Source of the DNA: a phage
Direction: 5' to 3' (one strand)
Length of the DNA stretch: 64,000 nucleotides
Sequence record: PZ583742.1
In this document: in pieces, positions 52,887 to 59,604 of the stretch
Layout of the letters: each line of letters begins with the position of its first letter
Numbering within the stretch: the first letter of the stretch is position 1
Translations under genes and position numbers: made by a program
Notes under the pieces: model-generated
Told to the model about the DNA's origin: nothing
Seen by the model: only the letters and a program-made list of their open reading frames with translations
Databases searched by the model: none

Positions 52887-53405
52887 ATGGCTCATTTTAA
52901 TGAATGTTCTCAACTGATTGCTGGTGTTGATAAAGCTCAGGGCGCTTATGATAATGCAATTTTTGAAGGCACTGACCCACTGCAAGTTATGCTTGATATG
53001 CAGAAATCATTGCAGGTTCGTCTGGCTAAAGAAAAACCAGAATATAACGAACATCCTGATAACCTGGCGACTGCTGGTGAAGTTGTTACCTGGCTCCGCA
53101 ACCAGAAAGATTATATTGATGATGAATTCCGTGAACTGATTACTGCATTAGGTGGCATGTCCAATGGCGAGAAAGCTGCCTCGGCCGTATGGAAACCATG
53201 GAAAGCACAACATGGCGAAATGCAGCAAACCCTGATTAATGATTTATCTCCTGAAGACCAGCTCGAAATTAAATTTGAGATGATTGATATCCTGCACTTT
53301 GTCCTGAACATGTTCCACGGTCTTGGACTGACTGCAGAAGAAATCTTTAAATTGTATTATCTGAAAAATGCCGAAAACTTTGCTCGTCAAGACCGAGGTT
53401 ATTAA
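52887..53405 (+). CDS. 56: dCTPase/dUTPase gp56
   Basis: MAHFNEC..L..GVDKAQ; DPLQVMLDMQ; IDDEFRELI; SPEDQLEIKFE..D..HFVLNMF.GLG..AEEIFKLYYLKN.ENFARQDRGY is near-identical to T4 gp56. Confidence 0.93.
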   Translation: MAHFNECSQLIAGVDKAQGAYDNAIFEGTDPLQVMLDMQKSLQVRLAKEKPEYNEHPDNLATAGEVVTWLRNQKDYIDDEFRELITALGGMSNGEKAASAVWKPWKAQHGEMQQTLINDLSPEDQLEIKFEMIDILHFVLNMFHGLGLTAEEIFKLYYLKNAENFARQDRGY

Positions 53406-53686
53406 TGGCTCGATTAAATAAACGTCAGCTTAAGAAAGCTCGCAAGAAATATATTAACGATATAATTGAAAATGTTAATACCGAAATCTTCGTAGAACTC
53501 TTATCTAATCAACTAAAACATTTATCTAAACATGAAATTGATACGAATACTGAAAATGCTAAAAATGTAATTGAAACTCATAATGCTTTTGCTAATGCAA
53601 CAGCAGAATGGATGGCGAATCCTACTGCTGAAAATCTAGCTAAAATGACTGAAGCCAATAAAGCAGTTCAAGCCATCAAATTGTAA
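53405..53686 (+). CDS. hypothetical protein
   Basis: ORF abutting gene 56 stop. Confidence 0.4.
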   Translation: MARLNKRQLKKARKKYINDIIENVNTEIFVELLSNQLKHLSKHEIDTNTENAKNVIETHNAFANATAEWMANPTAENLAKMTEANKAVQAIKL

Positions 53687-53688
53687 GT

Positions 53689-53696
53689 TATAAATA
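53689..53696 (+). promoter_or_regulatory. T4-type late promoter TATAAATA upstream of soc
   Basis: Exact TATAAATA 32 nt upstream of soc ATG; soc is a late gene in T4. Confidence 0.6.
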
Positions 53697-53727
53697 CGCC
53701 TGTAATTAAACAACAAAGGAGTTAATT

Positions 53728-53961
53728 ATGGGTGGTTTCGTTAATATCAAAACCTTCACGCATCCAGCTGGTGAAGGTAAAGAAGTTAAAGGTGTTGAAG
53801 TATCTGTTCCGTTTGAAATCTATTCGAACGAGCACCGTATTGCTAATGCACACTATCAGACTTTTCCTTCCGAAAAGGCCGCTTATGTCACCGTAGCGTC
53901 TAGTGCAGCTGATTGGCGAACTAAGAACGCGGCGATGTTTACGCCTACCCCAGTAGTTTAA
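53728..53961 (+). CDS. soc: small outer capsid protein Soc
   Basis: VNIKTF; SGAHYQTFPSEKAAY-type core (ours ANAHYQTFPSEKAAYVTV) matches T4 Soc; exact late promoter TATAAATA at 53689-53696; RBS AAGGAG. Confidence 0.85.
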   Translation: MGGFVNIKTFTHPAGEGKEVKGVEVSVPFEIYSNEHRIANAHYQTFPSEKAAYVTVASSAADWRTKNAAMFTPTPVV

Positions 53962-54765: not shown

Positions 54766-54911
54766 CACAAGAAGAAGCCGAACGCCAGGCAAAAGAAGCA
54801 CTGGATTTGCTTTTGAAAATTGGCAGTAAAATGATGGAAGAAAATGAAAAGTACATCAAGGAAAATAAAGTTCCTGATGGTCCATTAGTTGGTAAGAGGA
54901 AATCATTATGA
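54762..54911 (+). CDS. small hypothetical protein (49 aa)
   Basis: ATG overlaps upstream stop; below ORF-track size cutoff. Confidence 0.3.
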
Positions 54912-55390
54912 AAGTATACGAATTAGAATTCTATGTCCGTGATTCGGCTGGGCAAACACGACCTTACTATGCAACAGCCTGTCTTATCTTTGCATATAAT
55001 GGCATGGATTCGGTTACTGAGTTGGAAACAAAATTAATGAACCTGACGATGCCAGAAAACGTTATGCTGAAGGTATTTCATAGAAAAAACGTTAATGTGG
55101 CTGAAGGGTGTCCATTTACTGTTTCCGAAGCTCTGCATATCAAAGGCTATCGCCACCCGGACCTTTATGGCGAAGATACCATTTTCTATAAAGATAGAGA
55201 TAAAATGGCCACTGAACGTCTTCAAGGTCGCACATATCTGATTTCCACTACCGACGACCTTGCTGAAGTTGAACGTCAGATTTGGAAGCACTTTGATATC
55301 GGCTTGCGCTTTACTTTAACAGAAGAAGCTATTCAAGATACTAAAATGCGTGCTCGTATGTATGGTTACGGTCCTATCGGTGGCTACTAA
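54908..55390 (+). CDS. hypothetical protein
   Basis: 160 aa ORF with RBS AGAGGAAA. Confidence 0.45.
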
Positions 55391-55569
55391 TGGATTTATT
55401 TGAACTTTTTGAAGAGCCTAAAGCTCCTACGGAAGCCCGTGTGGACCTAGTTGACGAACTTGATGCGATTATACAGAAGCATGGTTTTAGTCTCCCAATA
55501 GAAGTTCTGCGCGACCTGGCCTCATATTACGACGACCCACCTCCATGGGCACCATGGGTGAAACGATGA
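55390..55569 (+). CDS. small acidic protein (59 aa)
   Basis: ATG overlaps upstream stop; below ORF-track size cutoff. Confidence 0.3.
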   Translation: MDLFELFEEPKAPTEARVDLVDELDAIIQKHGFSLPIEVLRDLASYYDDPPPWAPWVKR

Positions 55570-55799
55570 ACTGGTTAACAAATATTCCCACATCGGCGCT
55601 GGATATCGACCGTAAACAGGCTCATAAGGAAATTGAGCAACAAAAAATTAATCGCTTACAAAGGCTTAAGACTGAATCCGAGACAATTAAAGTCAAACGC
55701 CCGACAGAATCGAAAAGTTCTTACTCATCATATCAATCTCCGATTGGCATGGCCGTAGACATTGCAGTCTTTGGCGTCCCACTTGGAGTATTTAAGTAG
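55566..55799 (+). CDS. hypothetical protein
   Basis: ATG 55566 overlaps upstream stop (ATGA). Confidence 0.4.
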   Translation: MNWLTNIPTSALDIDRKQAHKEIEQQKINRLQRLKTESETIKVKRPTESKSSYSSYQSPIGMAVDIAVFGVPLGVFK

Positions 55800-55855
55800 T
55801 TTACTTACTCCCCTCCTAATGACATAATGGCCTTTCTTACAACAGAGAGGCCATT

Positions 55856-56416
55856 ATGAACATCATCAAATCTGATACCGAACCCAACCAGTTAAAATTT
55901 AGTGAAATGGAGATAGCTTCATTATTTGAGTGTCGCACATCAAAGGTTGATAAGACCTTGCATTCAAACGTTAACTCAATCATCAAGTCAAGGTTATCTG
56001 TACCTGATACAGTCTTGTATCGTGGGGTTACCCAGCAAGAGATTGATTTGTTAGATGAAGCAAAAGAATCAATGCAACCTTTTGAATTTGGAAGGATAAC
56101 CTCCTTTACAGAAGACTATGGTATTGCCAGGGATTTTGCTGCAATGGAATATGTGTCAAGGACTATCATCAGATTGAATCATACAAAAGCTTTTTGTTAC
56201 CATGATGCGATGCGCAAAATCGCGCTTGACGTTCCACTGGAATTCTTCAATACTGCTTCTGGTTCCGAACAGGCAGCAACGTTAAGACGTGAAGAATACA
56301 TGGACATGATTGATTCTGAGCTTGAATGGTTTGTTCCAGTTGACCAGAAATTCGTGGTGGTTGATGCTGGATTTGTTGGTGATTATTATGTTCTTGACTG
56401 TGTACAAGAGCAATAA
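55856..56416 (+). CDS. ADP-ribosyltransferase-like protein (ModB-like by position)
   Basis: R-S-E pattern: LYRGV, SFTEDYGIARDFA, ELEWFVP; paralogue of next gene; sits between 56/soc and dda where T4 has modA/modB. Confidence 0.5.
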   Translation: MNIIKSDTEPNQLKFSEMEIASLFECRTSKVDKTLHSNVNSIIKSRLSVPDTVLYRGVTQQEIDLLDEAKESMQPFEFGRITSFTEDYGIARDFAAMEYVSRTIIRLNHTKAFCYHDAMRKIALDVPLEFFNTASGSEQAATLRREEYMDMIDSELEWFVPVDQKFVVVDAGFVGDYYVLDCVQEQ

Positions 56417-56460
56417 GACACGTTAAGATGTTCCTATCAACTACTGATGAGGATAATAAA

Positions 56461-57075
56461 ATGCTGTACACAAGTCACCAATTAGCAGAGTACATCAATG
56501 CAGTTAAATGTGAATATTTTCGTGAAAATACCCAGATTGAAATTGATGAAATTTACTCTGAGTTGGAACAGAGTACACTCTGGCAGTGTATGGAAAATAA
56601 GCCAGACACTATCCAGGAAACTTTGAACAAAATTATTCGTAAGAATTTGACTTCTGCTGTGCCTGGTAAGTTATATCGCGGGATTTCTAAGAAAACTTTG
56701 GCATATCTTGAAACCGTAGGATGTGTTGGTGCTACGATTGAGTTTGACCGTGTAATGAGTTTCTCCAAAGATTTCAGTGTTGCGCGTAACTTTGCTTCCT
56801 TTAGCTTCTATGGAACCAAAAATATTTTCTGTATTAATGATGCACCATTCGCATTTGATTATCAGGAAGCGATTTTTAAAATGATTTGTGCGGCACCTCC
56901 TGAAGAGTTCAACGGACTATATCCTGAAATAACTCGTTCTTCAAACTTGCAATTAGTAAATGATGAAGATGAGATGATGTTCCCTGCGGGAACTACGCTA
57001 CGCGTGGACTCTATTGAGAGCATTTATAGATGGGAAGACTATAAATTATGGAATCTTTCTGTTCTTTCTTACTGA
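56461..57075 (+). CDS. ADP-ribosyltransferase-like protein (ModA-like by position)
   Basis: LYRGIS, SFSKDFSVARNFA, EDEMMFPAG; paralogue of 55856..56416. Confidence 0.5.
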   Translation: MLYTSHQLAEYINAVKCEYFRENTQIEIDEIYSELEQSTLWQCMENKPDTIQETLNKIIRKNLTSAVPGKLYRGISKKTLAYLETVGCVGATIEFDRVMSFSKDFSVARNFASFSFYGTKNIFCINDAPFAFDYQEAIFKMICAAPPEEFNGLYPEITRSSNLQLVNDEDEMMFPAGTTLRVDSIESIYRWEDYKLWNLSVLSY

Positions 57076-57155
57076 AGTATTCTGGGTTAACAAAAGGCCA
57101 AAAACCTTAGAACCATTATACACAGTAAAAATAAAAGCGTTAAAGGTGAAAAAGT

Positions 57156-57186
57156 AGTGTACATAAAAGATGAATAGTGTATAATG
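57156..57186 (+). promoter_or_regulatory. early promoter-like element TGTACA-N16-TATAAT
   Basis: TGTACA 57158-57163, TATAAT 57180-57185. Confidence 0.5.
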
Positions 57187-57231
57187 ATTTCATACTGAGT
57201 TTTCAATCGTCCGTAAGATGAGAAAAATATC

Positions 57232-57978
57232 ATGACTTTATCAAAAACCAAAACGCTGAAAGTTAAACGTCGTCTGGAACACACTCAAGCTTCCGCTAAA
57301 CGTCGCGGTAAAGACTTTAACCTGGATTTTAATTATCTGGTTAACATTCTTGACCAAAAAGTTTGTGCTTATTCTGGTGAAGCATTTAACAACTCTATTG
57401 AAGGTGAGAAGTTATCATTAGAGCGTTTTAACAATGATATTGGTTATATCAAGGGTAATGTTATTCCTGTTAAAAAGAAATACAATACCATGCGTTCTGA
57501 TTGGTCCCTGGATGAGCTTAAACAACGTCGCGATGATGTTGCTGTAAAAATTGCTCGCCCGTCCGTCAAGAAGATTGAAAAGTTAAATCTGACAGCAGAG
57601 AAATGGGAACAGATTAAAAAGTCGTATACCCATATTAAGAACATCCAACACAAACGTGATAATCGCGTTAAGCATTATGCTCAAATGAGTAAATCAGAGC
57701 AGTCCAAAGAAAACCAATTAAAAATGATTGCTCTGAAGGCTCGCATTGATGGTTCCCGTGTTGCAGAAGGTCATGAGCTTACTAAATTGAATGTCCTGCT
57801 CAAAGGTAATGACTGGAAGGTTACCAAGAAATTAACTAATGCTGAAACGCTTTTTGATTGCTATGATAAAATCATTCAAGGTCTTGAGCGTTTTGAGAAG
57901 ATTGGTTTTATTGGTAAATTAAAACTGAAACGTGGTCTACCTTTGAACGCGTCAATTTTTAAACTGATTAGAGGTTAA
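57232..57978 (+). CDS. Srd-like protein (assigned by synteny and size only)
   Basis: 248 aa ORF between mod-like genes and dda; downstream of TGTACA-N16-TATAAT promoter. Confidence 0.35.
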   Translation: MTLSKTKTLKVKRRLEHTQASAKRRGKDFNLDFNYLVNILDQKVCAYSGEAFNNSIEGEKLSLERFNNDIGYIKGNVIPVKKKYNTMRSDWSLDELKQRRDDVAVKIARPSVKKIEKLNLTAEKWEQIKKSYTHIKNIQHKRDNRVKHYAQMSKSEQSKENQLKMIALKARIDGSRVAEGHELTKLNVLLKGNDWKVTKKLTNAETLFDCYDKIIQGLERFEKIGFIGKLKLKRGLPLNASIFKLIRG

Positions 57979-57982
57979 TGTG

Positions 57983-58279
57983 ATGTACTACGCATATGTG
58001 CTGGTTCACAAAGATAAAGATGGTTTTGAACGCCCATTGGAATACAATGGAAAGGTTACCTTATACACCACAAAAGCGGGTGCAGAATATGAACTTGCCA
58101 ACTATTCATATACCACAAACCGATATTTAAGTATGGGGCGTATTGAAACCATTTACATTCCTAGGAAGTGGTGGTTTGATAAGCGTGAAACAAAAACAGT
58201 TTTTCCTACTGAAGAACACGCACGAGAATTGAAACAGGTTTTATATACTTTATATGTTAAGCGAGTAAAATTGGCATGA
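57983..58279 (+). CDS. hypothetical protein
   Basis: ATG 57983 (GTG 57980 also possible). Confidence 0.4.
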   Translation: MYYAYVLVHKDKDGFERPLEYNGKVTLYTTKAGAEYELANYSYTTNRYLSMGRIETIYIPRKWWFDKRETKTVFPTEEHARELKQVLYTLYVKRVKLA

Positions 58280-59604
58280 TTAAATTTGAAGACTTGAACA
58301 CAGGACAAAAAGAAGCTTTTGATTATATCACCGAAGCTATTCAACGACGTTCAGGGGAATGTATTACTCTGAATGGTCCAGCTGGTACAGGTAAAACTAC
58401 TCTGACAAAATTTGTCATTGACCATCTGGTGCGTAATGGAGTTATGGGAATTGTGCTTGCCGCACCAACTCACCAGGCAAAAAAAGTTCTATCTAAATTG
58501 TCTGGTCAAACGGCGAATACAATCCATAGTATTCTGAAGATTAACCCGACCACATATGAAGACCAAAACGTTTTTGAACAGCGCGAAATGCCTGACATGT
58601 CAAAATGTAATGTTCTGGTTTGTGATGAAGCAAGTATGTATGACGGGTCTCTGTTTAAGATTATTCTTAACTCTGTTCCTGAATGGTGTACTATTCTTGG
58701 GATTGGTGATATGCACCAGCTGCAGCCAGTTGACCCAGGAAGCACACAACAAAAGATAAGCCCATTCTTTACGCATCCTAAGTTCAAACAGATTCATCTG
58801 ACTGAGGTTATGCGAAGCAATGCTCCTATCATTGAAGTAGCGACAGAAATTCGTAACGGGGGTTGGTTCCGCGACTGTATGTATGATGGTCATGGTGTAC
58901 AGGGTTTCACCTCACAAACCGCTTTAAAGGATTTCATGATAAACTATTTTGGTATTGTAAAAGATGCTGATATGTTGATGGAAAACAGGATGTATGCGTA
59001 CACGAATAAATCAGTTGAAAAACTGAACAATATTATTCGTCGCAAGCTCTATGAAACGGATAAAGCATTTTTACCGTATGAAGTCCTAGTTATGCAAGAG
59101 CCACACATGAAAGAGCTGGAATTTGAAGGCAAGAAATTCAGCGAAACCATTTTTAATAATGGTCAGTTGGTTCGCATCAAGGATTGCAAATACACTTCCA
59201 CAATTCTCCGTTGTAAAGGTGAATCACACCAGTTAGTGATTAATTACTGGGACCTGGAAGTTGAGTCAATTGATGAAGATGAAGAATATCAGGTTGACCG
59301 CATCAAAGTTTTACCTGAAGACCAGCAACCAAAATTCCAGGCATATCTGGCTAAAGTTGCTGACACATACAAACAGATGAAAGCCGCTGGTAAACGTCCA
59401 GAGTGGAAAGACTTCTGGAAAGCCCGCCGGACCTTCTTGAAAGTTCGTGCTCTTCCGGTTAGTACAATCCACAAGGCCCAGGGCGTTTCAGTAGACAAGG
59501 CATTCATCTATACTCCATGCATCCATATGGCCGAAGCTTCATTAGCGAGCCAGTTGGCTTATGTAGGAATCACACGAGCGAGGTACGACGCATATTATGT
59601 ATAA
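58276..59604 (+). CDS. dda: DNA helicase Dda (SF1B)
   Basis: GQK.AF; INGPAGTGKTTLTKF; ILAAPTH.AKK.LSKLSG..A.TIHSILKINP; TEV.RSNAPII; STIHKAQG.SVD.AFIYTPCIH matches T4 Dda. Confidence 0.95.
   Translation: MIKFEDLNTGQKEAFDYITEAIQRRSGECITLNGPAGTGKTTLTKFVIDHLVRNGVMGIVLAAPTHQAKKVLSKLSGQTANTIHSILKINPTTYEDQNVFEQREMPDMSKCNVLVCDEASMYDGSLFKIILNSVPEWCTILGIGDMHQLQPVDPGSTQQKISPFFTHPKFKQIHLTEVMRSNAPIIEVATEIRNGGWFRDCMYDGHGVQGFTSQTALKDFMINYFGIVKDADMLMENRMYAYTNKSVEKLNNIIRRKLYETDKAFLPYEVLVMQEPHMKELEFEGKKFSETIFNNGQLVRIKDCKYTSTILRCKGESHQLVINYWDLEVESIDEDEEYQVDRIKVLPEDQQPKFQAYLAKVADTYKQMKAAGKRPEWKDFWKARRTFLKVRALPVSTIHKAQGVSVDKAFIYTPCIHMAEASLASQLAYVGITRARYDAYYV

Follow-up and report, generated by a model that had tools for sequence, protein, structure and literature searches.

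Two adjacent genes in sequence record PZ583742.1, a 64-kb stretch of phage DNA referred to throughout as the window, very probably encode early-expressed, arginine-specific mono-ADP-ribosyltransferases (ARTs) of the T4 Mod family, within the R-S-E (Arg-Ser-Glu) clade. Both belong to the Mod family by sequence, retain intact catalytic residues, evolve under purifying selection and lie in the position that modB and modA occupy in T4, and both of the encoded proteins have the ART fold in structural models. The window derives from a Gaprivervirus (T4-type; Straboviridae, Tevenvirinae), a coliphage of the SP18/VR7 group, and the pair corresponds to the modB/modA slot genes already labelled in GenBank, where the proteins are 97–100% identical; the finding is correct but ordinary. 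A first-pass annotation, made from the letters of the window, had proposed a paralogous pair of mono-ADP-ribosyltransferases with an R-S-E arrangement, situated at the T4 modA/modB position beside a gene of the size of srd. That interpretation stands, since both proteins are modelled with an ART fold and the candidate R, S and E positions are conserved among homologues.

Family membership, catalytic residues and fold

The proteins encoded by the upstream and downstream genes of the pair share 34% identity over 122 amino acids (aa) in BLASTP (E 3e-18), a degree of paralogy far above chance. The shared motifs picked out in the first-pass annotation are all present, as LYRGV, SFTEDYGIARDFA and SELEW in the upstream protein and LYRGI, SFSKDFSVARNFA and DEDEM in the downstream one. 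Identity as mono-ADP-ribosyltransferases is borne out by matches to PHROG 832, ‘RNA polymerase ADP-ribosylase’ (upstream protein E 2.8e-28; downstream protein E 2.4e-42), and by BLASTP comparison with T4 ModB and ModA, in which all four pairings fall at 27–38% identity with a weakest E of 4e-12. The upstream protein is 33% identical to T4 ModB over 152 aa (E 1e-23, 80 bits) and scores 49 bits against T4 ModA; the downstream protein is 36% identical to T4 ModB over 154 aa (E 7e-25, 84 bits) and 38% identical to T4 ModA over 153 aa (E 9e-21, 73 bits). Close homologues of both carry the precomputed Pfam family PF26816, and the T4 enzymes have been described as the ‘Mod family of the RSE clade’ (PMC9503650). 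T4 ModB, an NAD--protein ADP-ribosyltransferase, is cited as UniProt P39423 in PMC10468400. The family is small: when 1.84 billion representative proteins were searched exhaustively with HMMER, 83 clusters passed E <= 1e-3 and 38 passed E <= 1e-10, and it becomes visible only in such a search, as word-indexed searching returned 14 close relatives only, a profile query included. The ratio of nonsynonymous to synonymous substitution rates (dN/dS) lies at 0.04–0.14 for the two genes, spanning that same range in the upstream gene and reaching 0.09–0.12 when the downstream gene is compared with Dhakavirus alleles, indicating purifying selection on both.

In a four-way alignment with T4 ModB and ModA, the invariant columns include R56-G57, S83 and E155-x-E157 of the upstream protein, with R73, G74, S100, E169 and E171 as their invariant equivalents downstream. 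The R-G and E-x-E of the window proteins are thereby placed in register with R73-G74 and E171-x-E173 of T4 ModB and with R72 and E163-x-E165 of T4 ModA; in the downstream protein the R-G even carries the residue numbers that it has in T4 ModB, with which that protein also has an N-terminal EQSxLWQCME-K helix in common. The residues initially picked as R, S and E-x-E prove to be the conserved ones across 54 aligned family members, in which the Arg and Gly occur without exception (54/54 each) and the Ser and each Glu in 52 of 54. The conserved serine is that of the S-x-(T/S) strand, namely S83 of the upstream protein, S99 of T4 ModB and S96 of T4 ModA, whilst the counterparts of T4 ModA S109 and ModB S111 in the 186-aa upstream protein are A96 and A95. 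Which serine represents the ‘S’ of R-S-E is fixed by alignment of a 52-member family profile to the solved Arg-specific toxin Vis, a weak match (E 0.018) in the correct register (YRG on YRG, tSFs on TSTS, E-x-E on E-A-E). In T4 these positions have known consequences: ModB R73A/G74A is catalytically dead and gives a smaller burst size (PMC10468400), R73 and E173 flank the nicotinamide mononucleotide moiety in a model of ModB (bioRxiv 10.1101/2025.07.11.664405), and ModA E165A abolishes ADP-ribosylation (PMC11404850). Experiments have shown that ModB needs R73 and E173 and that ModA needs E165 (PMC10468400; bioRxiv 10.1101/2025.07.11.664405; PMC11404850). The E-x-E motif of the window proteins points to arginine specificity for the pair.

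Predicted structures support the view that both proteins are complete ART domains. AlphaFold2 modelled the upstream protein with a predicted local distance difference test score (pLDDT) of 86.6 and a predicted template modelling score (pTM) of 0.81, residues 1–11 being disordered, and the downstream protein with a pLDDT of 91.6 and a pTM of 0.85. The top matches from Foldseek searches of the models against the PDB were all solved R-S-E ARTs (probability 1.00, E 4e-7 to 1e-5), among them HopU1, C3 exoenzymes (C3bot), iota toxin Ia, CDTa, Certhrax, Plx2a, Vis, XopAI, Tre1 and ExoS/T. The upstream model superposes on predicted Mod proteins of other T4-like phages with TM-scores of 0.73–0.83 and a root-mean-square deviation of 2–3 Å, at 18–28% identity. 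Bacterial toxins and effectors of the R-S-E type (HopU1, C3, iota Ia, CDTa, Vis, Certhrax, Tre1) share the fold and the R / S-T-S / E-x-E arrangement, but at 8–18% identity and TM-scores of 0.4–0.58, and they are secreted proteins with eukaryotic or interbacterial targets, whereas the window proteins would be early proteins of a phage. One might suppose that one paralogue has become a catalytically inactive pseudo-enzyme, retained to bind or regulate the other, as such degeneration sometimes happens in tandem paralogues and the upstream protein has a shortened N-terminus that is modelled as disordered; with R-G, S-x-(T/S) and E-x-E intact in both proteins, low dN/dS in both genes and confident models of two complete domains, this is very improbable.

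The mod locus and its candidate control elements

The position of the pair also agrees with that proposed at the outset. The locus is syntenic with the modB-modA locus of T4, both genes lying between mrh-like/modA.2 and srd/dda, and the neighbour that had been described as Srd-sized is Srd itself. The full order runs from the mrh-like gene (modA.3) through modA.2, an 84-aa open reading frame (ORF) and the two ART genes to srd, dda.1 and dda (Table 1). The upstream gene thus occupies the slot of T4 modB and the downstream gene that of T4 modA, directly before srd, and the records of SP18, VR7 and VR20 label the two accordingly. T4 modB and modA overlap by 4 nucleotides (nt), whereas a gap of 44 nt separates the genes of the window. 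Over region 54900–59600, identity of the window stands at 97.5% with Escherichia phage vB_EcoM_RZ and at 96.7% with Shigella phage SP18. A search with the family hidden Markov model (HMM) found no further Mod- or Alt-like gene in the window.

Table 1. Genes, catalytic codons and candidate control elements at the mod locus (positions within the window)
Feature	Position	Strand	Remarks
mrh-like gene (modA.3)			Pfam T4_MRH, E 4.5e-43
T4-early-type promoter-like site	55799-55828	+	-35 GTTTAC 55799-55804; 17-18 nt spacer with TG; -10 CATAAT 55823-55828
Hairpin	55823-55858	+	5' arm 55823-55837 (-10 hexamer + 9 nt); 3' arm 55844-55858
Upstream Mod-family ART gene	55856-56416	+	186 aa; annotated modB in SP18, VR7, VR20
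Upstream gene, catalytic codons			R56-G57 56021-56026; S83-F-T85 56102-56110; E155-L-E157 56318-56326
Shine-Dalgarno GAGGA of downstream gene	56449-56453	+	7 nt before ATG 56461; read from sequence
Downstream Mod-family ART gene	56461-57075	+	204 aa (likely start); annotated modA
Downstream gene, catalytic codons			R73-G74 56677-56682; S100-F-S102 56758-56766; E169-D-E171 56965-56973
Second early-promoter-like site, between pair and srd	57157-57185	+	GTGTAC ... TATAAT; 10/12 consensus matches
srd	57232-57978		PHROG 1400, E 3e-98
dda.1, after srd			Pfam Phage_Y01A
dda, after dda.1			Dda helicase

Of the two protein sizes given in the first-pass annotation, 186 aa holds for the upstream gene, whilst the 205 aa given for the downstream gene should probably read 204. 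The second open frame extends over 56428–57075 (215 aa), and some GenBank records use its start at 56428. ATG 56461 is the likely true start because a GAGGA Shine-Dalgarno (SD) sequence stands upstream of it and homologues start at the equivalent of M12 of the longer frame; the start at 56428 was rejected, as it is without an SD sequence and homologues begin at M12. Database homologues, together with modA of VR7 and VR20, are 204 aa long, and alignments with T4 ModA and ModB start at the Met encoded at 56461.

Directly upstream of the pair lies a promoter-like site of the T4 early type, with nine of twelve consensus matches plus the TG in a consensus scan. Its -35 element, GTTTAC, is the T4 early -35 consensus (PMC1524935), and alignment shows both this and the -10 to be conserved in VR7, Bp7, PhAPEC2, T4, KP179 and CC31. 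The -10 hexamer opens a hairpin of two 15-nt arms, 93% complementary and 6 nt apart, with a predicted RNA fold of -23.5 kcal/mol (z = -7.07), a value that none of 200 shuffled sequences equalled. The arrangement is conserved in the same six phages, and a consensus structure over seven phages contains 14 pairs, 6 of them with compensatory changes. Both the SD sequence (GAGAGG) and the start AUG of the upstream mod gene fall within the 3' arm, and their enclosure in a stem suggests that translation would be masked on read-through transcripts, in the way known for T4 e, soc, 49 and I-TevI (PMC3014915). Transcripts begun at the local promoter would be without the 5' arm and translatable, whilst read-through transcripts would be masked. 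This order of early promoter, stem-loop over the -10, then SD sequence and start matches the promoter/stem-loop cassettes (PeSLs) that have been described in T4-like phages (Arbiol et al. 2010, PMC2839356; Comeau et al. 2014, PMC4122927), which have been implicated in modular gene shuffling (PMC2839356, PMC4122927); the element of the window differs in that its 3' arm holds the SD sequence and AUG, and in that the T-run terminator tail is absent.

The second early-promoter-like site putatively drives srd. It has AAGTAGT(T/G)TAC in common with the first, the two forming a direct repeat (55794–55807 and 57152–57165, 1358 nt apart), and no significant stem-loop was found at this srd promoter site (z = -0.28). 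The mod pair is bracketed by the two sites.

Several further observations concern the surroundings of the pair. The 84-aa ORF just upstream (55545–55799), a 77-aa hypothetical protein in the SP18 and VR7 annotation, is 83–99% conserved in Gapriverviruses and has a hydrophobic C-terminal end; tblastn found no match to it in Dhakavirus, Mosigvirus, T4, Karamvirus or Jiaodavirus loci. The locus holds one mod gene in Jiaodavirus (KP179, Klebsiella) and Karamvirus (CC31, Enterobacter), and two in the E. coli-infecting Tequatrovirus, Mosigvirus, Dhakavirus and Gaprivervirus. Homologues of modA.2 (KP179 locus 2112–2300; UPEC01, UPEC07) are labelled ‘molybdenum ABC transporter, periplasmic molybdenum-binding protein ModA’, evidently through a collision of gene names between phage modA.2 and bacterial modA, with no real transporter behind it. 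Upstream of the mrh/mod region, the SP18 record annotates two tandem overlapping genes for the small outer capsid protein, soca and socb, at 79–544 of its locus, an area that corresponds to about 53480–53960 of the window, where ORFs are found at 53405–53686 and 53728–53961.

Proposed activity and relationship to T4 ModA and ModB

After infection, the pair would be transcribed from the T4-early-type promoter directly upstream. Each enzyme would bind NAD+ in a cleft to which the conserved Arg, the strand bearing S-x-(T/S) and the loop bearing E-x-E all contribute, release nicotinamide and move ADP-ribose onto the side chains of arginines in host proteins; one of them may also use NAD-capped RNA as a source of ADP-ribose-linked RNA for transfer. 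Going by T4, the targets are likely to be Arg265 of the RNA polymerase alpha subunit and the translation proteins S1, L2, EF-Tu and trigger factor, the modification of which would help turn host transcription and translation to the phage. [quoted passage not shown] With E. coli or Shigella as host, the same targets are present as for T4. Side NADase activity is common in R-S-E ARTs, and T4 ModA and ModB are toxic on expression in E. coli (PMC2988021, PMC3014915), yet the T4 homologues have been shown to transfer to protein arginines on defined targets (PMC2988021, PMC3014915, PMC10468400) and the E-x-E motif is kept, so the proposition that the window proteins are mainly NAD+ glycohydrolases or generic toxins, not specific protein modifiers, deserves hardly any credence.

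It is worth noting however, that several points weigh against a straightforward reading of the pair as T4-like Mod enzymes. Firstly, enzymatic activity, arginine specificity, early expression and target identity are what we infer for the pair. Secondly, neither protein scored above threshold in Pfam-A and NCBIfam scans. The best ART match of the upstream protein in Pfam was DRAT (PF07357; E 0.02, 14.5 bits vs a gathering cutoff of 25), and the downstream protein had zero Pfam matches; among 52 family members, sub-threshold matches were to DRAT in 16, ADPrib_exo_Tox (PF03496) in 4 and ART (PF01129) in 2, a tie to these families at the level of fold and clade only. As T4 ModA and ModB also go without NCBIfam matches, the null scan reflects the content of the library and is no evidence against membership. 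A Sld5 match of the upstream protein (E 0.002) was set aside as spurious. Thirdly, PDB sequence searches with the window proteins, T4 ModA and T4 ModB returned no related solved structure, the truncated-haemoglobin and LHC matches among the results being attributed to chance; neither T4 ModA nor T4 ModB has a solved structure (bioRxiv 10.1101/2025.07.11.664405). Fourthly, the upstream protein is shorter than other Mods by about 20 N-terminal residues. Finally, a neighbour-joining tree of Mod proteins (200 bootstraps) is star-like at its base, with deep bootstraps <40% and well-supported clades at shallow depth only. Identification of either gene as ModA or ModB by phylogeny was rejected on account of this lack of deep resolution, and, with no supported one-to-one orthology, the names modA and modB are here positional only. 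Both genes are nearer to T4 ModB than to T4 ModA in BLAST, which puts in question whether a true ModA-type enzyme acting on RNA polymerase alpha is present. Isoelectric point and charge give no discrimination between the two paralogues.

The shallow clades of the tree join T4 ModA with P0029 and P0033, and T4 ModB with P0023. Gaprivervirus, Dhakavirus and Mosigvirus share a clade of downstream genes, whilst the upstream genes of Dhakavirus and Mosigvirus group apart from the upstream gene of the window, which is joined with P0002. The T4 ModA clade excludes both window genes, and no supported clade joins either of them with T4 ModB. The Dhakavirus and Mosigvirus phages Bp7, E33 and PhAPEC2 have the same two-gene arrangement, and the downstream gene of the window is 76–84% identical to Dhakavirus and 55% identical to Mosigvirus counterparts, but their upstream genes form a separate clade, with 27–31% identity to that of the window. 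In trimmed alignment columns, the latter is 27–29% identical to the upstream genes of Dhakavirus, Mosigvirus and T4, and, at 29%, this modB-slot gene is not nearer to T4 ModB than it is to the other Mod clades. All 34 phage records at >=90% identity to it are Gaprivervirus. On these identities, the upstream gene is a genus-specific Mod lineage.

Such divergence raises the possibility that the Mod fold and chemistry are kept, but that the genus-specific enzyme upstream differs from both T4 ModA and T4 ModB in its choice of target or donor: its substrate might be some other host protein, a defence protein or a nucleic acid, or it might be the NAD-RNA ‘RNAylating’ enzyme, in which case the division of labour seen in T4 would not carry over to the pair. 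No other Mod exceeds 33% identity to the upstream gene, those of the sister genera Dhakavirus and Mosigvirus included; in a tree without deep structure its only partners are a few metagenomic sequences (P0002, P0026, P0027), and it is 95–99% conserved within Gaprivervirus under purifying selection; the higher scores of both genes against T4 ModB than against T4 ModA are also in keeping with such a shift. We consider it possible, though rather unlikely: the phages share their hosts (E. coli and Shigella) and the T4 targets, making the same targets the simplest expectation, the motif is E-x-E and not Q-x-E, which predicts arginine specificity as in T4, and the sequence gives no pointer to a particular alternative target.

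Allele exchange at the mod slot

The downstream gene has a history of a different kind from its surroundings. Its protein is 100% identical to that of SP18 and 84% identical to the allele of Dhakavirus E33, but 65–67% identical to those of VR7, VR20 and TH22, the flanking genes of which are mostly 93–100% identical to the window. Nucleotide identity to VR20 falls from ~98% to 45–78% over ~56400–57100 and then recovers, and for VR20 and VR7 together it lies at 45–80%, against 90–100% in most flanking 100-nt windows, whilst identity to E33 is highest in that same interval. Synonymous sites between the two Gaprivervirus alleles are saturated (proportion of synonymous differences, pS, ~0.8, vs 0.15 for srd), indicating an old allele imported by recombination as opposed to rapid local evolution. 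Judged by these profiles, the downstream mod gene is a gene-precise recombinant allelic cassette.

Taken with the divergence of the upstream gene, this invites a broader and more doubtful suggestion, to which we would assign somewhat less weight than to altered specificity of the upstream enzyme itself: the T4 division of labour, in which ModA acts on RNA polymerase alpha and ModB on the ribosome and in RNAylation, may not transfer to this phage group, where an upstream lineage with perhaps its own specificity sits beside a downstream allele moving between genera, and where the mod locus might be a slot for swapping ARTs of different specificity, bracketed by early-promoter cassettes.

As it stands, the analysis bears out what was already a routine annotation, namely that two early Mod ARTs are present in T4-like coliphages. 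Its residual value is comparative, and lies in the divergent upstream lineage, the allele swap and the mapping of ModA and ModB. ModB attaches RNA chains to ribosomal proteins (PMC10468400), and why just one T4 ART does so is not understood; divergent, active-looking Mods such as the 186-aa enzyme are natural test cases for the features that set the choice of target and of donor (NAD vs NAD-RNA). The allele swap and the promoter/hairpin cassette, for their part, illustrate how host-takeover genes get exchanged between phages and may be kept silent on read-through transcripts.

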